This document shows positions 320-9,399 of a stretch of DNA of 10,716 nucleotides, piece by piece. Numbering within the stretch: position 1 is the first letter of the stretch; the number at the start of each line of letters is the position of its first letter. The notes under the pieces were generated by a model. It had not been told where the DNA came from. It made no database searches and saw nothing but the letters and a program-made list of their open reading frames with translations. The position numbers and the translations under genes were made by a program. Origin of the DNA: Candidatus Micrarchaeota archaeon (GTDB taxonomy: Archaea; Micrarchaeota; Micrarchaeia; Norongarragalinales; SBBD01). The stretch spans positions 1-10,716 of the forward strand of contig JBBSVW010000061.1 in assembly GCA_038046605.1 (NCBI GenBank), in the 5' to 3' direction.

Positions 320-3300
320 TTAGACTTTAGCTTCCGCAACTGCAACCTGCCTATCCTCTGAGCCGGGGGATCCTGTTTTTGCCTCCGAAATTGCAACTTG
401 CTTTTCCGCAAGCTCAACTTCCACGAGCTGGGAGGAGCCCTTTATCATGCTCACCCCAATGAGGCAGTCCGCATTCTTGTAGGTCATCTGGTTGTGGGTG
501 ACGCATAGGATTTGGGAGCTTTTGCCTATTTCCTTCACAAGAAGGGCAAGCTTGCGGGAATTTTCCATATCGAGGGCGGCATCCGCCTCATCCAGGATGT
601 AGAGGGAGGAGGGGTTGTAGGATTGGATGGCGAAGAGGAACAGGATTGCGATGAGGGATTTTTCGCCTCCGGACATGAGCTCGAGGTATTTTACCTCCTT
701 GTTTTCGATTTGCGCCTTTATTGTTAAGCCCCCTTCAAGGGGATTTGCCTCGTTTTCCAGGAAAAGCGTTCCCTTGCCCTTGAAAATTTGGGAAAATAGG
801 GCCATGAAATTCTGGTTGACGGAATGGTAAGCGCCCATGAATGTTGCAATTTTCTTTCCCTCGATTGCTTTTATCATATCGAGGATTGCCTGCTTTTCAT
901 TTGCAAGCTGCCGCACTTTCAATTTCTGCTCATCCAAATCCTTTGCGCGTATCTCGTATTCATCAATTGCCTTGAGGTTAACCGTTCCAATTGAAGTGAT
1001 TTCCTCTTCGGAGGCTTTGATTTTGAACATCAATTCCGCCTTATCGGAGATATTAAGAAGCTCCACCTGCCCATATTTGGAAAATTCGGTTTTGAGGTTG
1101 GTGAGGTTGGTTTCTGATACCGCCCTTGCAACATCGCGCTTTTGCTTTTCACCAACAATTTTCTCGCGCTCGAATTCCCATTTGCCCTTTTGGGTTGAAA
1201 TTTTGTAAACTGAAGAGTCAAGGCGCTCCCGTTCCTCAATCAAATCTTTTAGCGCGCCTGAAACTAATTTTAATTCCTCGTTTTTCGCATTCACAAGTTT
1301 TGCGCTATCCTTTATCACTTGATCGGATTTTGCAATTTCGGCTTTTGCAGTTTTGATCTCCTCCTTGAAATCATTTTCCATTTTCTCGAGGTTTTTCCAT
1401 TCCCGTTCATAAGCAGCGTATTGCGTGTTTTGCGAATCAAGCCTATTTTGGTAATCGCTCATCTGGAATTTGAGGTCGGCAAGCCGCTTTTCCTTCTCTT
1501 TTAGGGCGATCCCAAAGTTCTGCTCCTTTTCGACATCGATTTTGGATTTAAGCTCAAGAGAAAGGATGTTGAGTTCGGAAAGCTTCCTTACAAGCGCGCT
1601 TTTATCCTCATCGAATTTTTCAATTTGCTTTTGCGAATCCTCGATTTCATCCTGGAGGGCCTTGAGCGCATCCCTCACATTCTTGGTTTTCTCATCGTAA
1701 TCGCGTTCCAGCTTGTCGTAATTTTGGATTTCAAGCTCTATTGCACGAATTTTGACTTCGAATTCGGCCTTTTTCTTTCGTTCAATTCCCATCTTTTCCT
1801 GCGATGAGTAAAGCTCCCCAAGGAGCGCCTCCTTGCCTAATTTGAGCTGCTGCACCTGCTTTTCATATCCTTCCAGCTGCTCCTTCATCTTCTGGAAATT
1901 CACGCGCTCCTGGAAGGAGCCTCCCGTCACCAAGCCGGCCTGCTCAACTAATTCGCCATCCATCGTGACAAGGCGGGATTTTCCAATGAGGAGCTCAGAT
2001 TCCCTTAGCGATTTTGCAAGAAGAGTATTTCCAAGCACATATTTCATGGCTTTTTGGTATTGCTTATCAAATTGCACTAAATTTAGGAGAAACCCAAGGG
2101 CGCCTTTTTCCTTATCCAGGGAAAGTTCATCCTTGTTTAACTCGAATGGCTTGATTTTGTCAAGTGGAATAAATGAGACACGGCCAAGTTTGCGGGCTTT
2201 TAGGGAATCAATAAGTTTTTCTGCGACCTTTACGCCATCAACAACAACATAATTGAGCCTCCCGCCAACTGCGACCTGGATTGGAAGGGCATATTTGGCG
2301 TCGTATTCGATTAGTTCCTCGACTGTTCCATGAATTCCTCCAATTGTTGCCTTTTGCTCCAAAACGAATTGCACTCCGCGCGAAATTTCCGCCTCCTTGG
2401 AATGCTGGAGCCGGGTCATGATTTCGGTGCTTTTTATTTTGGCTGTAAGGAGCTCTTTTTCACTTTCCGCAATTTGCTTGTTGAGCGCTTTTTCGGAATT
2501 GAACAAGTCATCGAGGGATTTGGAAATGCCTGAAAGTTCGCTTTGGTGCTTCTTTTTTGCCTCCTCCGCCAATTTCCTCTTTTCCGAATAATCCTCCCTT
2601 CCCCCTTGGCGAAGGCGCTTCATCTCATTTTCCTTCAAATGGGAAATTTCCACAAGGCTTCCGGATTTTGCCTGTATCGCATTCAGCTCCTCCTTTATTT
2701 TTAGCATTTGCGCCTGCGCATCATCATAGCCCTTTTTGCTCTTGAAGAAATCCTGCGAGAATTTGTTGCTTTCCTTGGTTACGGCATCGACCTTGCGCTG
2801 CTCCTCCTTCAAAATTTCATCGATGGCCTTGATTTCGGATTTGATTTCCGTAATTTTCGAAAGCGTTCCCTTCACTTCATCGTGCGCGCGCATCTTTTCC
2901 AGCTGCATTGCGGCAATTTTTTCATCATTCTTCTTGAGGAGGGATTTTTTCTCATCGATTTGGGCGCGGTTGCGCTCGATTTCCCCCCTGAAATTTTCGA
3001 TTTCCTTTTCCAGGACAAGCTGCTTCCCTTCACTGCGCTCCGATATTTTCCGGTGGACCTCGTCCTTTTTAGCCTGCAATTCCTTGACCTGATCGTCGAG
3101 CTTGTTCATTTCCGCAACTATTTGCTCATTCTTGGAATTGAGGTCGACCATCGAGTTGATGGCGTTCTCGAATTCGATTTCAACTGCCTTTAGGTCGATT
3201 GAAAGAAGCGTTGCTTTGTAGGCATCAAGCTCATGCACCAAATGCAAATAGCGGTCCGCATCTGCCTTGTCCTTTTTTAGCTGCTCAAGAAGGCCGTCGC

Positions 3301-3847
3301 GCTCCCCTAAAATTACAGAAGCCTCCTTTAACCGATCATCCACTTTCCCTAGTTCAAAGAGTGATTCCTTCTTTTTTTCCTCGTATTCGAGAACGTTTGC
3401 GATGTTGTCAACAAGGGTCCTGCGATCCCTCGAATTCATCTCGACTATTTGCTGCACCTGGCCTTGCTGGATGATGTTGTATGTGCTGATTCCATGCGAG
3501 CGAAGGAAATCCTCAATCACATATTTGTGCACATGCCTTCCGTTCATGCGGTAGCGGATCTTCCCATCGCTCCTAATTGCCCTGCTGACAACAACCTTTT
3601 CGCCCTTCCCATCTGAGAGGGAAAGGTTCACCTCGGCGATTTTGGAGTGGGTGTGGATTAGGTCTATTGTTTTCTTTGCGCGAAGGGCGCGAATGCGGCT
3701 TTCCCCAAGCGCAAAAAGTATGGCATCAACGATGTTGCTCTTGCCTGAGCCATTTGGGCCTATGACTCCGTTGAAGCCTTTGACTAGGTGGATGCGCGCA
3801 TCCTTGAATGATTTGAAATTCCTAAGCTCTACGGATTCGACGAACAT
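320..3847 (-). CDS. smc: Chromosome segregation protein SMC
   Basis: 1175 aa. N-terminal NFKSF and Walker A GPNGSGKSN, Q-loop IIQQGQ, long coiled coils, hinge with G-x6-G-x3-GG (GELVEQAGLVTGG), signature MSGGEKS, Walker B/D-loop YILDEADAALD, H-loop VTH. Confidence 0.97.
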   Translation of the reverse strand: MFVESVELRNFKSFKDARIHLVKGFNGVIGPNGSGKSNIVDAILFALGESRIRALRAKKTIDLIHTHSKIAEVNLSLSDGKGEKVVVSRAIRSDGKIRYRMNGRHVHKYVIEDFLRSHGISTYNIIQQGQVQQIVEMNSRDRRTLVDNIANVLEYEEKKKESLFELGKVDDRLKEASVILGERDGLLEQLKKDKADADRYLHLVHELDAYKATLLSIDLKAVEIEFENAINSMVDLNSKNEQIVAEMNKLDDQVKELQAKKDEVHRKISERSEGKQLVLEKEIENFRGEIERNRAQIDEKKSLLKKNDEKIAAMQLEKMRAHDEVKGTLSKITEIKSEIKAIDEILKEEQRKVDAVTKESNKFSQDFFKSKKGYDDAQAQMLKIKEELNAIQAKSGSLVEISHLKENEMKRLRQGGREDYSEKRKLAEEAKKKHQSELSGISKSLDDLFNSEKALNKQIAESEKELLTAKIKSTEIMTRLQHSKEAEISRGVQFVLEQKATIGGIHGTVEELIEYDAKYALPIQVAVGGRLNYVVVDGVKVAEKLIDSLKARKLGRVSFIPLDKIKPFELNKDELSLDKEKGALGFLLNLVQFDKQYQKAMKYVLGNTLLAKSLRESELLIGKSRLVTMDGELVEQAGLVTGGSFQERVNFQKMKEQLEGYEKQVQQLKLGKEALLGELYSSQEKMGIERKKKAEFEVKIRAIELEIQNYDKLERDYDEKTKNVRDALKALQDEIEDSQKQIEKFDEDKSALVRKLSELNILSLELKSKIDVEKEQNFGIALKEKEKRLADLKFQMSDYQNRLDSQNTQYAAYEREWKNLEKMENDFKEEIKTAKAEIAKSDQVIKDSAKLVNAKNEELKLVSGALKDLIEERERLDSSVYKISTQKGKWEFEREKIVGEKQKRDVARAVSETNLTNLKTEFSKYGQVELLNISDKAELMFKIKASEEEITSIGTVNLKAIDEYEIRAKDLDEQKLKVRQLANEKQAILDMIKAIEGKKIATFMGAYHSVNQNFMALFSQIFKGKGTLFLENEANPLEGGLTIKAQIENKEVKYLELMSGGEKSLIAILFLFAIQSYNPSSLYILDEADAALDMENSRKLALLVKEIGKSSQILCVTHNQMTYKNADCLIGVSMIKGSSQLVEVELAEKQVAISEAKTGSPGSEDRQVAVAEAKV

Positions 3848-3982
3848 AAGGCGCTCACAAAATGGGTTGCAAAATATTACGCAAGAGGGTTTAAAAGTGG
3901 TTTACATCGCTTAAACGCATGAAAAGTGAATAAAATCAGATACCCGGCGGAATTGAAATAAAGAAAATAATCCTTTTTTAGC

Positions 3983-5332
3983 CTATGCCCCAAAAAGGAG
4001 GTTTTTGGCTAGGTAAAGCATGAGCGCAACGCAGGAAAGAAGGCCGATAAGCGCCCTGAATCTGCTTAAATGCTCCATTAGCCCATTTTTTCGCTTCATC
4101 ATGAATGCAGATAGGTTTGTGACAGCGTAATATCCCAGCAAGCCAAGGCTGCTCATCTCAATTATCTGCCTGAAATCAACAAAGAGGGCAAGGAGGGCCA
4201 TTAGAATTGCAGATGAGAGGATGGCAACATAGGGAGTGCCATATTTGGAGTGGATTTTTGAAAGGAAGGCAGGAAGCTGGCTGTTCCTTGCCATGGAATA
4301 GGCAATTCTTGAAATTCCCAGAATTTCGGTTAAAAGTACTGATGCGGTAGCCGCAAGGGCGCCTATTGCCACCAAAATGACCGCGTACCTGCTGCCTGCA
4401 AGGGAAATCGCCTCCGCAATTGGCGCTTTGGAAAGCGAAAGTTTGTCTGCACCAAGCATTCCTATGGAAACAAATCCCGTAAGAAGGTAAATTGCTGTGC
4501 AAACGGTGAGCGCAAGAAGGATAGCCCGGGGGATGGTGGTTTTTGGATTGATTACCTCTTCTGCAATTGTTGCACTCCTTCCAAAGCCTGCAAATGCGAA
4601 GAAAATAATGGCTGCTCCGGAAATGATGCCGCCCAAACCCTTCCCGAGCGGCTCTTCGAAATTATCATACGAGATGCGGCCGATGCCAAAGAGGATGAAA
4701 AAGAGCAGGATTGCTATTTTCATGACAACAAGGGCATCATTCACATAGCTTGAGCGCTTTAATCCGACAATATTCAAAAGCGCCATGATGGCAATAATCC
4801 CAAGGGCGATCATTTTCACATCAAGGCCAGGATATAGGACAACGAAATAGCTCGCAAAGCCTAAACTAACAACGGCGCCACTTACTGTTGTCGATAGTGA
4901 CCAAAGGATGCCATCTATGAATCCGGCTTGGTGGGAAATTACCTTGTAGGCGAATTCGTATTCCCCTCCTTCCTTGGGGATTTGCTTGCTTAATTCTGCG
5001 TAGCCTAGGGCGGTGATGTAGGAGATTGCGCCAGCAAGAAGGAGTGAATAAATAAGACCGGAACCCGCAACGCTCGCCGCAACCCCAATCACAACGAAAA
5101 TGCCAGCGCCGATGATTGCGCCCATATCTATCGCAGTGGCATCGTAAAGGCCAAGGACGCGCTTAAGCTTGCCATTTTCACCCGATGCAATTGATAATGG
5201 GGAATTTACGGCGTTTTTTGGGGCCGGATCGACCTTTTCAATTAATAATCCTGCAGGAGTGCTTTCTTTATATTGGGGTTTGAATTTTGCCGTTGCTTTG
5301 GCTAGTCCTTTACGTTTTCCTTTTGTGGGCAT
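3983..5332 (-). CDS. APC-superfamily amino acid permease
   Basis: 449 aa with about 12 hydrophobic segments. Motifs LKRVLGL...GAIIGAGIF (TM1), YAEL...P.EGG.Y, FAFAGF...AEEV.NP...IPRAI, SRIAYSMAR...LP.FL.KIH.KYGTPY. The exact start is uncertain because of a basic N-terminal extension. Confidence 0.93.
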   Translation of the reverse strand: MPTKGKRKGLAKATAKFKPQYKESTPAGLLIEKVDPAPKNAVNSPLSIASGENGKLKRVLGLYDATAIDMGAIIGAGIFVVIGVAASVAGSGLIYSLLLAGAISYITALGYAELSKQIPKEGGEYEFAYKVISHQAGFIDGILWSLSTTVSGAVVSLGFASYFVVLYPGLDVKMIALGIIAIMALLNIVGLKRSSYVNDALVVMKIAILLFFILFGIGRISYDNFEEPLGKGLGGIISGAAIIFFAFAGFGRSATIAEEVINPKTTIPRAILLALTVCTAIYLLTGFVSIGMLGADKLSLSKAPIAEAISLAGSRYAVILVAIGALAATASVLLTEILGISRIAYSMARNSQLPAFLSKIHSKYGTPYVAILSSAILMALLALFVDFRQIIEMSSLGLLGYYAVTNLSAFMMKRKNGLMEHLSRFRALIGLLSCVALMLYLAKNLLFGA

Positions 5333-5466
5333 GGAATTGTAAAGCGCTTGCGGTATAAATAGATTTTCTTGCTTTGGGCAAAGTGATTTAAACCAAAAAA
5401 GAGAAGTAATATTCGGGCGGTAGATGGAGAGCCAAATGGGATCGCCTTGAATTTTAGAGAGTTTTT

Positions 5467-6507
5467 ATGGTGCTTGATGCTTCCACATACAACCTTGTGC
5501 TTACCCCTGAGTCCGCGCTTTCCATGATACAAAAGGAAATTGCGCACCGGGGCTGGAAGAAATTCGAGGTGGAGGAGGTCCGGCTGATTTACACCCCATT
5601 TTACATGTTCTCATTTGATGTGAAGGCAGAAGGCGGAGCGCCCCCGATTACGGGGAAAGCGGCGATCAATGCGTATAATGGGGATATTTCAGATTTGATA
5701 CCTTACATCATTGATAGACCGCTCACCAAAACCAAAAATCCCTCAGAAGGCGGGGAAATTGAGGAGACGGCAATATCAATGGCGGAGGCAAAAGAGGCTA
5801 CGAAAGATAAGATTGCTGCGCAAACTGGATTGAAGCGCGAAAGCGTTTCGGTTTCCGCGTTTGTAAAAGTTTACATCCCATTCTTTAGAATTTGGCTTGA
5901 GGCGGCGCACCAACCCATAAAGGTGGATGTGGATGCGCTTATGGGAACGCCCCTGGGATTGGAGGGATTGCATGAGCGCGAGAAAACATGGGGAGAAGCC
6001 ACAAGTGAAACGCTAAGCCGACTGAAAACGCCCCAAGGATGGGTTGATTTGAGCGGAAAATTGATTGGTTCGCTTACTGGTGGTGGAGGGGGAGGGCACG
6101 TTGGCGGGGATCATGGGAGAAGCGATGGTCACGGAGATGGCGGGCAGGGGGGAGGAGCTGGCGGAATTGCCGGAACCGGCTTCCAATCGCGGTGGCTAAT
6201 TCTGATTGTTGCAATTGGGGCGCTTGCATATTTTGCGTTTTTGCAGCCATCATCCGGAATCAAATGCACCGGTGAAATTACCCAGTATAAAAACGAATGC
6301 ATGCTTTCCGGAATTTGCACTTACTCATTGAAGAACAATGCCGAATTGCCAGTTGGGGAAATTAAACAGGTTTTTGTGAAGGATGGGAAAGATACGCTAT
6401 TTGATACCTACACTAATGTCGTTTTCGAATCAACGCAAGAGCCCTTTGAGGTCACTTTTGAACCAAAGGGGAAGGAATGCAGGCAGTACACGTGGGGATA
6501 CTCCTAA
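5467..6507 (+). CDS. Hypothetical membrane-anchored protein: two PepSY-like repeats, Gly/His linker, one TM helix, Cys-containing C-terminal domain
   Basis: 346 aa ORF divergent from the permease. Internal repeat LIYTPFYMF...AAINAYNG / KVYIPFFRI...VDVDALMG; linker GGGGGGHVGGDHGRSDGHGDGGQGGGAGG; TM WLILIVAIGALAYFAFL; 4 Cys after the TM. Confidence 0.8.
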   Translation: MVLDASTYNLVLTPESALSMIQKEIAHRGWKKFEVEEVRLIYTPFYMFSFDVKAEGGAPPITGKAAINAYNGDISDLIPYIIDRPLTKTKNPSEGGEIEETAISMAEAKEATKDKIAAQTGLKRESVSVSAFVKVYIPFFRIWLEAAHQPIKVDVDALMGTPLGLEGLHEREKTWGEATSETLSRLKTPQGWVDLSGKLIGSLTGGGGGGHVGGDHGRSDGHGDGGQGGGAGGIAGTGFQSRWLILIVAIGALAYFAFLQPSSGIKCTGEITQYKNECMLSGICTYSLKNNAELPVGEIKQVFVKDGKDTLFDTYTNVVFESTQEPFEVTFEPKGKECRQYTWGYS

Positions 6508-6565
6508 TTAAAGTTGATTTTTTCTAATTTTAGCCTTGTAAATCTGTTCTATTGATGATCACACT

Positions 6566-7771
6566 ATGGTAAAATGCGCCAATTGTTCTAAGGAAGCAGT
6601 TGTAAGGCTTAGTTACAACAAGACCGACCTTTGCGGGAATTGCTTTTGCGACCTGTTTGAAAATCGGGTGAAATCGGCTAACCGTGATTTCAAGTTGATT
6701 ACTCTAAATCAGAAGGTAGGGGTCGGGGTTTCGGGGGGGAAGGATTCGGCGGCATTGCTTTATGTGCTCTCCCATATTGTGAAAAATATCCACGGAACCA
6801 CGCTTATTCCAATTCTGATTGATGAGGGGATTTCTGGCTATAGGGATCAAGCGATTTTGAAAGCTAGGGAATTATGCGATTCGCTGGATTTGCAACTTCG
6901 CATTTTTTCCTACAAGGATGGGTTCAAACTTTCAATGGATGAAATCATGAAGATGAAAAAGGCAAATCCTACAGGAGGTTATGAGAGGAGCTGCACATAT
7001 TGCGGGGTATTCCGGAAAACTCTTCTGAATAAGGCGGCACTTGAGCTGGGATGCGATACACTTGCAATTGGGCATAATGCGGATGACATCGCGCAAACTT
7101 TTTTGATGAATTTATTGCATAATGAGCCGGATCGATTGAAGCGCTTTGATGTGATAAACGATGAGGTGGAGGGATTTGTTCCCCGCATAAAGCCTCTCAT
7201 TTACAACCTGGAAAAGGAGGCAGCGCTTTACTGCGAGCTTAAGGAGCTCCCATATCACAGGGGCGAATGCCCGTATTCCAATGAGAGCTTCCGTGGCGAA
7301 ATCAAGAACTTTTTGAATGGATTGGAGCAAAAATTCCCGGGAGTGAAATTCAATCTTTTACGCTCATATTTGGCAATGAGGAAAGAATTGGAGAAGGCCT
7401 CAAATTTTGAGAGGATGTTTCCCAATGGCGAAGGCTTCGAGGATATGGAAATGTTCATCAAAGCAGTTGGAATGGCAGATCCGTCACTTAAAATCGCTGG
7501 ATTTTCGGATGATGCGCCTTCAAAATCAAAAAATGAATATTCTAATGATACGGAACCGCAAATATCAGGATCCAAGCACGATTTAAGCCATAAAATTTCA
7601 TTCAAGAAAAGCACGGCTTCAAAATACCAAAAATGCAAAAACTGCGGCCAGAACTCCTCCACGGGCCTATGCAAGGCGTGCTCTTTTATAGAAAGCATAA
7701 ACGAAAAAAGGAACTCTGCCAATGGGGATTTGAATAAACCTAAAAGGGCTAAATCGGCGATGAAAAAGTGA
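6566..7771 (+). CDS. TtuA/NcsA (Ncs6/Ctu1-like, TIGR00269-type) tRNA 2-thiolation protein
   Basis: N-terminal Zn finger CANC...CGNC, PP-loop SGGKDS, CTYCG, GHNADD, RIKPL, ECPY, C-terminal Zn finger CKNC...CKAC. Confidence 0.93.
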   Translation: MVKCANCSKEAVVRLSYNKTDLCGNCFCDLFENRVKSANRDFKLITLNQKVGVGVSGGKDSAALLYVLSHIVKNIHGTTLIPILIDEGISGYRDQAILKARELCDSLDLQLRIFSYKDGFKLSMDEIMKMKKANPTGGYERSCTYCGVFRKTLLNKAALELGCDTLAIGHNADDIAQTFLMNLLHNEPDRLKRFDVINDEVEGFVPRIKPLIYNLEKEAALYCELKELPYHRGECPYSNESFRGEIKNFLNGLEQKFPGVKFNLLRSYLAMRKELEKASNFERMFPNGEGFEDMEMFIKAVGMADPSLKIAGFSDDAPSKSKNEYSNDTEPQISGSKHDLSHKISFKKSTASKYQKCKNCGQNSSTGLCKACSFIESINEKRNSANGDLNKPKRAKSAMKK

Positions 7772-8616
7772 AAATTAGCCAAATCCATCTTGCCCAATTA
7801 TTGCTCCTTAGCATCGCCATCATCTGGGGCGTCACATTCGTTGTGAACAAGGATGCGCTTGCCTATGTAGATGCGTTCACGCTGGTTGGAAGCAGGTTTT
7901 TCCTGGCATTCATAATAATGGGCGCCTATTTGGTGGCAAAAGGGATTAGGATAGGCAGGAAAGAATTGGAATCTGGGCTTGTGCTTGGCGTTTTGCTCTT
8001 CATTTCATTTACAACCCAAACATATGGGCTTAATTTCACAACCCCCGCAAGGAGCGCATTCATAACGGGCCTATTTGTCGTGCTAGTGCCGGCGATTTTT
8101 TTCCTTTTGGGGGGAAAGGTTAGGAAAAGGGAACTGCTTGCGGCAATTATTGCTTTTGCGGGCTTATTTGTGCTAACCTACCAGCCGGGATTTGAAATAA
8201 ATTTCGGGGAGGCACTTACACTCATATGCGCGGTTGCTTATGCAACGCATATTGTGTACATGGGAAAATATGTCAGGAAAATACGCCCATTGCCCCTTGT
8301 TGTCGTGCAATTTGGAGTAGTTGCGGTTTTGGGCTTTCTATTAGCATATGCTAGCGGCACCGCCTTCTTTTCAGCCGGAGCAATAACCCCAATTGTCCTC
8401 CTAACAATATTTGCAACCATTTATGCGTTTTTCGGGCAGGCATGGGCGCAGCAAAAACTCACGGAAACCCAAACCGGAATCATTTTCACAATTGAGCCAA
8501 TTTCAGCTGGCCTTCTTTCGGTTTTGCTTGGGATTGAGGTGTTTTCAACCCAGCAAATTGCGGGCTCGGTGCTTATTTTGGCGGGGATCTTCCTTGCTTC
8601 GGTAAAAAAGAATTAA
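7768..8616 (+). CDS. EamA/DMT family transporter
   Basis: 282 aa with about 10 TM segments. Motifs IWGVTF...K.AL, Q..GL.FTT.ARSAFITGL.VVLVP, GEALTL.CA..YA.HI, IIFTIEPI.A. The GTG start overlaps the thiolase stop (GTGA 7768-7771), suggesting translational coupling. Confidence 0.93.
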   Translation: MKISQIHLAQLLLLSIAIIWGVTFVVNKDALAYVDAFTLVGSRFFLAFIIMGAYLVAKGIRIGRKELESGLVLGVLLFISFTTQTYGLNFTTPARSAFITGLFVVLVPAIFFLLGGKVRKRELLAAIIAFAGLFVLTYQPGFEINFGEALTLICAVAYATHIVYMGKYVRKIRPLPLVVVQFGVVAVLGFLLAYASGTAFFSAGAITPIVLLTIFATIYAFFGQAWAQQKLTETQTGIIFTIEPISAGLLSVLLGIEVFSTQQIAGSVLILAGIFLASVKKN

Positions 8617-8773: not shown

Positions 8774-8923
8774 TTATCTTAGCTTGAACTTATCAAGCAA
8801 TTTGCTTGCAATTAGGTAAGCCGGCAGCATTGCTAAGAATGCCGCCTCACTTCGGATCAGAAGCACCAATCCGGCGCCAAGGCTTGCAAAAAGCGCTATT
8901 TCAAAATTAGTTTGGCCCCGCAT
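8774..8923 (-). CDS. Small (49 aa) membrane peptide with class III (pilin-type) signal motif
   Basis: From ATG 8923: MRG/QTNFEIALFASLGAGLVLL... This has [KR]G-Q, Glu at +5 and a hydrophobic stretch. TATA-like TTTATATA lies about 30 nt upstream on the minus strand. I prefer this start over the track's 8983. Confidence 0.65.
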   Translation of the reverse strand: MRGQTNFEIALFASLGAGLVLLIRSEAAFLAMLPAYLIASKLLDKFKLR

Positions 8924-8952
8924 ATTAACCACAATCCTTGATAAATGGGGTT

Positions 8953-8962
8953 CTATATAAAT
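8953..8962. promoter_or_regulatory. Probable archaeal TATA box(es) between the divergent peptide operon and tRNA gene
   Basis: CTATATAAAT reads as a TATA element on both strands. It lies about 30 nt from ATG 8923 (-) and about 40 nt from tRNA start 9002 (+). Confidence 0.5.
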
Positions 8963-9038
8963 ATTGGGTTGATGAAATATCAACTGGAAGTTAATTGGAA
9001 TGGGCTCGTAGTCGAGTGGTAAGACGTCAGTTTCACAC

Positions 9039-9121
9039 GGACTTCTTTTTCTTCCCGAATAAAAAGAACTCCACTAGAAAAAGAAGGGAGTGTTAAGGAA
9101 AAGGAAAAGGAAGTCGTGAAC
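9039..9121 (+). other. tRNA intron 1 (83 nt, anticodon loop, probably 38/39)
   Basis: Central helix TCAC (9033-36) / GTGA (9116-19), bulge AC^G, closing stem GACTTCTTTTTCT (9040-52) / GGAAAAGGAAGTC (9103-15), 3' site AC^A in a relaxed loop. Sequence alone also allows 36/37 or 37/38, with an identical spliced product. Confidence 0.85.
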
Positions 9122-9142
9122 ACTGAAGAACCGGAGTCCGAT

Positions 9143-9227
9143 TGCCTTGCCTTTCTTTTCCAAAAGAAAGGCGATGGCGCCGCGAAAGAAAAGGATTTTG
9201 CGGCTCCGCCAATTAAAGGCAAGGAAA
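9143..9227 (+). other. tRNA intron 2 (85 nt, T loop, probably 59/60)
   Basis: TCC (9137-39) / GGA (9223-25) helix with 3-nt bulge AA^T next to the T stem; closing stem TGCCTT (9143-48) / AAGGCA (9216-21); two internal hairpins (9149-9172 and 9175-9211). The junction is uncertain by 1-3 nt. Confidence 0.82.
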
Positions 9228-9399
9228 TCTCCGCGGGCCCAATTGACACCCCTAGGGGGGAAGGATTCCCCCCTACTCGTGTTACGCAGACTTGGGATCT
9301 GCTAATGTCCGAATTGGCTTTCAATTCGTACATCGCCTCTACCCCCTTTCTTTGATTGGGAGGATAAATTGGGAAATAAAAATTAATTTGGTGGTTTGC

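Follow-up and report, generated by a model that had tools for sequence, protein, structure and literature searches.

The question raised by this locus is whether a stretch of DNA in which standard programs see no transfer RNA (tRNA) can encode one, and by what route its two long inserts arrived. The stretch, referred to below as the window, is contig JBBSVW010000061.1 (10,716 nt; C61) of assembly GCA_038046605.1, a 1.64-Mb, 106-contig metagenome-assembled genome (MAG) of a Norongarragalinales-like Candidatus Micrarchaeota archaeon that is 90.7% complete; the sequencing runs containing the locus are groundwater metagenomes. The element in question, at positions 9002-9241 of the plus strand, is very probably a functional tRNA-Val(CAC) gene with two introns spliced by protein enzymes, the second of which is a recent copy of a repeat that invades tRNA genes.

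A tRNA-Val(CAC) gene in three pieces

When the three exons listed in Table 1 are joined, ARAGORN reports a 72-nt tRNA-Val(cac), the canonical cloverleaf being regained once the inserts are removed, and with intron 2 alone excised the -i option of the same program finds Val(cac) with an 83-nt intron. The anticodon CAC (9034-9036) lies in exon 1, and CCA is not encoded. On the native sequence of the window ARAGORN finds 0 tRNAs; Rfam has 0 matches that reach its gathering score, and relaxing the threshold to E ≤ 10 brings up none to tRNA. Weak Rfam matches to microRNA, small nucleolar RNA and gyrA-RNA (E 0.16-9) were dismissed as chance level. Nor do the introns match a group I or group II intron or a C/D-box small RNA at Rfam gathering score, and direct reading of either intron finds no C box (RUGAUGA). 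The tRNA status of the joined sequence was judged by ARAGORN together with orthologues. On both counts the first-pass annotation, made from the sequence alone, was right in proposing a hidden three-exon tRNA-Val(CAC) with two long introns, and its coordinates are exact: exons of 37, 21 and 14 nt and inserts of 83 and 85 nt, so that intron accounts for 168 of the 240 nt (70%). It also expected such a gene to be missed or mis-annotated as open reading frames (ORFs), which fits insofar as both programs miss the native gene and unsupported ORFs overlap it.

Thirteen Val(CAC) orthologues emerged when 60 related genomes were searched and the loci inspected; their exons were compared by gapped alignment. 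The closest, in genome G002 of the same genus, matches at 72 of 72 exon positions and carries a 99-nt insertion after position 37, with exons 2 and 3 contiguous. Two further congeners have a sole insertion after position 37, of 56 nt in G004 (71/72) and of 64 nt in G006 (68/72), and two genomes from other genera of the same family, G007 and G009 (68/72 each), have an 82-nt insertion two positions earlier. Exons 2 and 3 are uninterrupted in all five. The remaining eight genomes, from families f2, f7, f9 and f11 (61-68/72), have uninterrupted 72-nt genes with no insertion. Within exon 1 the G002 gene is identical and the others differ by 1-4 substitutions. Both predicted exon joins thus occur in relatives as contiguous DNA, and the agreement is therefore far more than chance. 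Against a gathering score of 29, the Rfam tRNA model gives 67-72 bits for four of the eight intron-less orthologues (L013, L015, L016 and L019, the ones scanned) and 53.5 and 51.7 bits for two one-intron orthologues. A gene for a TtuA-like protein adjoins the tRNA in this genome and in G002, G004 and G006, and the loci in these congeners are therefore taken as orthologous. A pattern search for exon 1 allowing ≤3 mismatches found no match in G001, G003, G005 or G008. The exons appear to be under selection: they match those of G002 completely (100%), against 87% identity over 63 nt for intron 1, whose length also differs.

Table 1. Features of the tRNA-Val(CAC) locus and its surroundings, in window positions
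Feature	Position	Strand	Remarks
Putative archaeal TATA-box, A/T-rich TATATAAATATT	8954-8965	+	37-48 nt upstream of the mature 5' end; read from sequence
Exon 1 (37 nt): acceptor 5' strand, D-arm, anticodon-stem 5' strand, anticodon loop	9002-9038	+	Standard positions 1-38; ARAGORN, orthologues
Intron 1 (83 nt): rod-like anticodon-stem extension	9039-9121	+	Position 38/39; fold, orthologues
Exon 2 (21 nt): anticodon-stem 3' strand, variable loop, T-stem 5' strand, T-loop positions 54-59	9122-9142	+	ARAGORN, orthologues
Intron 2 (85 nt): copy of dispersed repeat family 2	9143-9227	+	T-loop position 59/60; fold, blastn, nhmmer
Exon 3 (14 nt): T-loop position 60, T-stem 3' strand, acceptor 3' strand, discriminator A73	9228-9241	+	ARAGORN, orthologues
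Family-3 repeat copy	9244-9364	+	3 nt past the tRNA-Val 3' end; neighbouring context, outside the tRNA
ORF, 178 aa	8980-9516	-	Overlaps tRNA gene and repeat; no Pfam match
ORF, 79 aa	9116-9355	+	Overlaps tRNA gene and repeat
ORF, 164 aa	9292-9786	+	Overlaps repeat region; no Pfam match
Neighbouring genes: SMC (1,175 aa), amino-acid permease, TtuA-like PP-loop tRNA thiolase, EamA transporter	320-8616		
ORF, 346 aa	5467-6507		No Pfam match

Splice-site structure and splicing enzymes

[quoted passage not shown] When the 240-nt precursor is folded without constraints, the minimum-free-energy structure (-96.4 kcal/mol) retains the four stems of the cloverleaf (acceptor, D, anticodon and T) and shows each intron as a long helical extension with its splice sites in a relaxed BHB, bearing out for both introns the earlier suggestion that the junctions sit in such motifs. 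The cut sites of both introns obey the BHB rule, lying on either strand 2 nt 3' of the central helix. Intron 1 has a strict 5' bulge of 3 nt (9037-9039), a 4-bp central helix (9033-9036/9116-9119) and an intron-intron helix running from 9040/9115. In intron 2 it is the 3' site that has the strict 3-nt bulge (9226-9228), and the central helix (9137-9139/9223-9225) consists of 3 bp and a G.A pair.

Cutting intron 1 at 37/38 or at 38/39 yields an identical product in this gene. The canonical 37/38 placement was rejected: it forms only 2 of the 4 central-helix pairs, versus 4 of 4 for 38/39, and by eye it also loses the conserved C38 in G002, G004 and G006, which 38/39 keeps. The claim that both introns sit at non-canonical positions thus stands for intron 2, at 59/60, a site already recognised as a hot spot for non-canonical introns, and for intron 1 by a single nucleotide only. 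Homologues of intron 1, 56-99 nt long, occur in five genomes of the same family (96% identity over 49 nt in G006, 87% over 63 nt in G002, 83% over 47 nt in G007 and G009) and in none of the eight genomes of other families, and blastn finds no paralogue in the genome itself, hence no intron family shared with another tRNA gene. Intron 1 is thus an older, family-level intron of variable length. Its homologue lies at 36/37 in G009 (L009) and G007 (L010), which belong to two other genera, as opposed to 38/39 here and in the congeners; from one genus to another the intron slides by two positions, and at 36/37 in the G007 and G009 orthologues a hand-drawn BHB fits well.

The genome contains one splicing-endonuclease gene, encoding an EndA of 388 aa on C20. 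Residues 14-388 align with residues 15-387 of the EndA of ARMAN-2, an archaeal Richmond Mine acidophilic nanoorganism (PDB 4fz2; E 3.5e-126); the catalytic triad (Y236, H251 and K282) is identical, and the ARMAN-specific loop reads GTYK, with K162 aligned to K161 of the ARMAN-2 enzyme. In the available part of Hirata 2012 (PMC3488258), from which the residue roles are taken, the loop lysine of ARMAN-2 EndA confers cleavage of relaxed motifs. The enzyme is thus an ARMAN-2-type, three-unit epsilon2 endonuclease with a predicted broad specificity, and with this typing the idea of an ARMAN-type archaeon with a broad-specificity endonuclease gains its support from conserved residues. The nearest EndA loci in named genomes (85-89% identity) are in Candidatus Micrarchaeota and Norongarragalinales MAGs. 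A gene for the ligase-step protein RtcB is present on C28 (569 bits). As a side observation, an 8,963-nt contig filed under Candidatus Kaiserbacteria, of the candidate phyla radiation (CPR), carries a full-length epsilon2 EndA that is 69% identical (L042); it is most likely a mis-binned Micrarchaeota contig.

Intron 2 and the family-2 repeat

Long introns are common across this genome. Run genome-wide with -i, ARAGORN finds 21 tRNAs, none for valine, 13 of them with introns mostly of 72-121 nt. A cloverleaf scan that allowed inserts in the anticodon loop and the T-loop, with candidates joined and then checked by ARAGORN, gave 28 rows, of which 21 were kept; pooled with the ARAGORN calls and Gly(TCC), these make 28 supported genes. 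Seven are uninterrupted and 21 interrupted, six of these by two introns: Val CAC (83 + 85 nt), Val TAC (29 + 140), Met (61 + 143), Asp (91 + 80), Ser GGA (39 + 100) and Pro GGG (42 + 141). An intron of at least 78 nt (78-199) is present in 20 of the 21 interrupted genes, and T-loop introns measure 80-199 nt. Reading by eye adds interrupted genes, some with three inserts, for Pro CGG, Pro TGG, Gln CTG, Leu GAG, Gly CCC, Val GAC, Thr GGT and Ala CGC; with these, the genome has all three Val isoacceptors, each interrupted. The first-pass idea of a lineage-wide system of large introns, with its suggested genome-wide ARAGORN check, is borne out by these counts at the level of this genome. Two long introns in one gene are, as it held, atypical when archaea at large are considered; within its own genome the gene is typical. 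Seven scan rows were dropped as spurious or as alternative 3' ends (C9 50718-50901, C27 20594-21258, C32, C38, C69, C88 and C105 10758-11239), their 112-396-nt "introns" crossing unrelated or coding DNA; also set aside were an alternative reading of Asp (V=16) and an ARAGORN "Arg ccg" on C45 with a 233-nt intron. In a congener, a tRNA-Gln(CTG) gene read by eye (L104; G003:C5:156600-156950) holds three inserts, in the D-loop, in the anticodon loop and, from family 2, in the T-loop.

Intron 2 belongs to a dispersed repeat, here termed family 2, a feature that the first-pass annotation did not recognise. Its ends are inverted repeats, TGCCTTGCC ... GGCAAGG(CA), paired in the fold as the intron-intron helix, and they enclose a pyrimidine/purine hairpin and a conserved GC-rich core. 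Within the genome, blastn finds 11 further copies of intron 2 at 82-89% identity, and an nhmmer profile about 22 family-2 loci. Genes for tRNAs of several isoacceptor types (Asn, Leu, Val TAC, Phe, Ala, Lys, Gly and others) contain copies. At least 10 genes have the element at T-loop 59/60; in Thr GGT it occupies 37/38 (by eye), and in Gly TCC the D-loop. Orientation was read in 12 host genes. It is forward in six (Val CAC, Val TAC, Asn, Leu CAG, Phe and Thr GGT) and reversed in five (Gly TCC at 57.9 bits, Lys TTT at 41.0, Met at 28.6, Gln at 23.5 and, by eye, Pro GGG), palindromic cross-hits on the wrong strand scoring at most about 18 bits; Ala TGC holds both orientations head to head. Several T-loop introns are composites in which one element is nested inside another. 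Outside tRNAs, four family-2 loci lie in tRNA 3' flanks (two on C57, one each on C9 and C89), and two copies are intergenic, between ORFs, with no tRNA found there natively or after 1,400 trial excisions each.

Family 2 was detected in 11 of 401 sampled genomes of the phylum, all in the same order (5 of 6 genomes of family f1, 4 of 21 of f11 and 1 of 8 of f9). Congeners can differ in whether a given tRNA contains the element: the Arg TCT gene does so in G004 but not in the present genome. Intron 2 itself is missing from all 13 orthologous Val(CAC) genes examined and is therefore a recent gain. In congener G006, tRNA-Val(TAC) has a T-loop intron that shares 94% identity with the 3' half of intron 2, and Val(CAC) and Val(TAC) have a common T arm and acceptor strand; the Val(CAC) copy most likely came from recombination with a Val(TAC)-type gene.

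Whatever the element or its orientation, T-loop introns end in GRA and two further nucleotides before the 3' cut, and this tail pairs with T-loop positions 54-56. By eye, loops with TCC are matched by GGA in 5 of 5 cases and loops with TTC by GAA in 7 of 11 and GGA in 4 of 11, which, the copies being related, is modest support for matching of tail to loop.

Taken together, the following sequence of events would account for the locus. A precursor of at least 240 nt would be transcribed, in which the introns prolong the anticodon arm and the T arm as long helices; epsilon2 EndA would cut at 9038|9039, 9121|9122, 9142|9143 and 9227|9228, each in a relaxed BHB, after which RtcB would join the three exons and CCA be added. 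At the DNA level, a family-2 repeat of about 75-85 nt would enter a tRNA gene in the T-loop (59/60), anticodon loop or D-loop, oriented either way and at times nested with another element. Its inverted ends would supply the intron-intron helix of the BHB and the GRA-NN tail, pairing with T-loop 54-56, the central helix. By rebuilding the BHB at the insertion site, ends and tail would keep the insertion spliceable and therefore tolerated.

Several points weigh against a working, spliced gene invaded by a repeat. In the minimum-energy fold intron 1 has only a 1-nt bulge (C9121) at its 3' site, and intron 2 a 2-nt bulge, followed by the intron-intron helix, at its 5' site. RNAalifold on eight family-2 introns finds no covariation, the copies being too alike, and several of the family-2 host tRNAs were reconstructed by eye only. 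The T-loop (9137-9143 joined with 9228) reads TCCGATT; its position 55 is thus C in place of the nearly universal U (pseudouridine 55), a variant also found in intact Val(CAC) orthologues. The variant was noted as well at L003, L016, L017, L020, L021 and L102, C55 occurs in other tRNAs of the clade (Asp in this genome, Arg TCT in G004, Lys TTT in G003), and the T-loop in sister genomes is TTCGATT. Compared with the Val(CAC) site of G002, which is empty of intron 2, the 85 nt are inserted precisely and no target-site duplication is seen (≤1 nt of ambiguity). Family 2 has terminal inverted repeats and dispersed copies, including copies outside genes, as a miniature inverted-repeat transposable element (MITE) does, and because that duplication is lacking it is described here as MITE-like and not filed as a MITE. 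The published ARMAN-2 substrates, in the available text of PMC3239211, are introns of 13 and 25 nt, against 83-85 nt here. Finally, transcription from the A/T box at 8954-8965, cleavage and ligation are inferred, as are CCA addition and the spread of the repeat at the DNA level; comparable A/T boxes stand at similar upstream distances in many other tRNA genes of the genome (by eye).

There is also the matter of need. No second Val(CAC) gene turned up with blastn or in the cloverleaf scan, which speaks for a working gene, although the assembly is 90.7% complete and could lack another copy. The tRNA-Val(UAC) encoded on C70 can in principle read GUG, so that Val(CAC) is not strictly indispensable. 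This leaves room for a decaying pseudo-tRNA, in which arrival of the repeat in the T-loop inactivated the gene and GUG passed to tRNA-Val(UAC), and the recency of intron 2 would suit such a history. We consider it improbable, for the exons have stayed 72/72 identical to those of G002 despite diverged introns, and the insertion lies precisely where a BHB forms, with its cut sites in register and its tail matched, as far as that modest agreement goes, to the T-loop. The Val(TAC) gene that would have to take over carries a still longer family-2 intron at the same site. Family 2 also occupies that site in tRNAs found only once in the assembly (Asn GTT, Phe GAA, Gln TTG, Lys TTT and Ala TGC), where its introns must therefore be spliced. 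That the interruption was made in assembly or binning, by chimeric joins at repeats, is the least credible account by far: the MAG is in 106 contigs, intron 2 and the element downstream of the gene are multi-copy, and contig depth rises over both, but contigs from public runs of three studies carry pieces of the interrupted form, one spanning 8900-9284 with zero differences, one from a second study spanning 8900-9178, and one from a third spanning 9115-9241, that is, intron 2 and both flanking exons. No joint skipping either intron was found among the contigs of four DNA runs, three studies having pieces, and the interruption is therefore not an assembly artefact; congeners, moreover, show like architecture in other tRNAs.

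How the repeat spreads can be read in another way, with the excised intron reinserted into a pre-tRNA by a reversed endonuclease and ligase reaction, then reverse-transcribed and recombined into the genome. Such RNA-level spread would explain why insertion is precise, why the inserted unit is what EndA would excise, why no target-site duplication is seen and why copies in many tRNAs have the 59/60 site in common. Sense-strand reverse splicing would not be expected to produce copies in both orientations, nested copies, copies in tRNA 3' flanks between duplicated ends or copies at two intergenic sites; these therefore argue against it, and we regard it as unlikely, if somewhat less so than inactivation of the gene. 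A functional gene whose second intron arrived as DNA is the explanation that we prefer.

Immediately downstream of the gene lies a copy of a second repeat, family 3, built of a G5/C5 hairpin framed by GACAC...GTGT, optional further hairpin modules and an end of the form GCCTCTACCCCC...TTGCGAA; contig depth is raised over the region of this copy. nhmmer finds 48 family-3 hits in the genome (for example C9:23054-23159, C55:6588-6701 and C106:10853-10889). The family starts within about 5 nt of the tRNA 3' end in 9 of the 28 genes and also follows protein genes, and its short form constitutes the T-loop introns of tRNA-Asp(GTC) and tRNA-Gly(GCC). On C9 (22930-23300, minus strand) and C57 (9920-10420), the final 15 nt of a tRNA, beginning at T-loop position 60, are repeated 197 nt and 153 nt downstream, respectively; family-3 and reversed family-2 repeats lie between the two copies, and the distal copy is preceded by a tail of the T-loop-intron type. 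Similar duplications were seen at L106 (G053) and L021 (G022) and, by eye, at C89 (about 36690-36920); there is none at the Val(CAC) gene. Such loci may represent a stage on the way to 59/60 introns, or else scars of integration.

A further feature is a pyrimidine tract whose downstream purine tract is its parallel complement, which we call mirror tracts. They measure 13 nt in intron 1 (9044-9056 versus 9076-9088), 11 nt in intron 2 (9151-9161 versus 9184-9194) and 10-13 nt in seven further long introns, making nine introns out of 23 tested. The observed length was never reached in 200 mononucleotide shuffles of each intron, a lenient control for low-complexity tracts, and in the orthologous intron of G004 the pyrimidine tract has changed and the mirror tract has changed to match (by eye). 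The pyrimidine-loop-purine-loop-purine layout fits an intramolecular purine-motif triple helix. As to coding content, the three ORFs around the tRNA gene and the downstream repeat look spurious, and a gene caller could annotate them in place of the tRNA.

Comparison with known tRNA intron systems

As a single gene, tRNA-Val(CAC) is otherwise of a known type. For ARMAN-2 (Candidatus Micrarchaeum acidiphilum), the parts of PMC3239211 and PMC3488258 consulted document tRNAs with several introns, use of the 59/60 site, relaxed motifs and the epsilon2 enzyme, and PMC3239211 describes a relaxed 59/60 intron in tRNA-Cys that ARMAN-2 EndA cuts in vitro. The phylum, the type of enzyme and the relaxed 59/60 site of helix-bulge-helix (hBH) type are the same; introns that are copies of dispersed repeats in both orientations belong to the present genome, and the ARMAN-2 accounts, in those parts, are without such copies.

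In Thermoproteales, according to the portions of PMC4090602 and PMC4033280 that we could draw on, similar introns occur in different tRNAs at canonical and non-canonical sites, with up to three introns per gene, and intron gain is thought to happen at the DNA level, limited by the need for a BHB. The likeness to that "large-scale intron transposition" is an intron family common to different tRNA species; the differences are that the phylum is another one and that the endonuclease is epsilon2 here and alpha2beta2 there. The elements described above also have terminal inverted repeats and occur reversed, nested, in 3' flanks and between genes, a comparison in which Thermoproteales are represented through reviews alone. 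With the Caldiarchaeum model of mobile-element integration at tRNA 3' ends, as set out in the available text of PMC3293823, the likeness lies in the duplicated 3' ends on C9 and C57, the Val(CAC) gene differing in having none; we infer from it a link between duplicated tRNA 3' ends and the origin of T-loop introns.

The openly readable literature, supplements and subscription journals aside, yielded no prior account of long or repeat-derived tRNA introns in Micrarchaeota. What sets this genome apart from the known systems is the size of the introns, their modular inverted-repeat build and the reversed, nested, flanking and intergenic copies. One practical consequence is that ordinary tRNA finders under-count tRNAs in such genomes, as shown by the absence of any Val tRNA from the ARAGORN output. 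For a structurally characterised epsilon2 endonuclease, the locus offers natural relaxed-motif substrates of 80-200 nt. With introns present or absent between congeners, elements inside and outside tRNAs, and apparent intermediates, the gain of archaeal tRNA introns also becomes testable within one small clade. The arrival route of these introns is still described as open in the accessible text of a 2026 preprint on Asgard archaea (10.64898/2026.10.13.758758); if the introns are indeed born from repeats, this lineage would show one such route, through DNA, directly.

The broadest reading, to which we give somewhat less than even credence, is that in this order protein-spliced tRNA introns are born from small non-autonomous DNA repeats, with the loci of duplicated 3' ends as intermediates and mirror purine tracts that could mark a triple helix used in mobility or by the excised RNA. 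Such introns would be the tRNA counterpart of eukaryotic "introners", in which, as described in the part of PMC11282704 consulted, a small non-autonomous repeat likewise makes a removable intron where it lands. The parallel is one of analogy and not of homology: here the hosts are tRNA genes, and removal would fall to a protein endonuclease acting at an RNA structure in place of the spliceosome.

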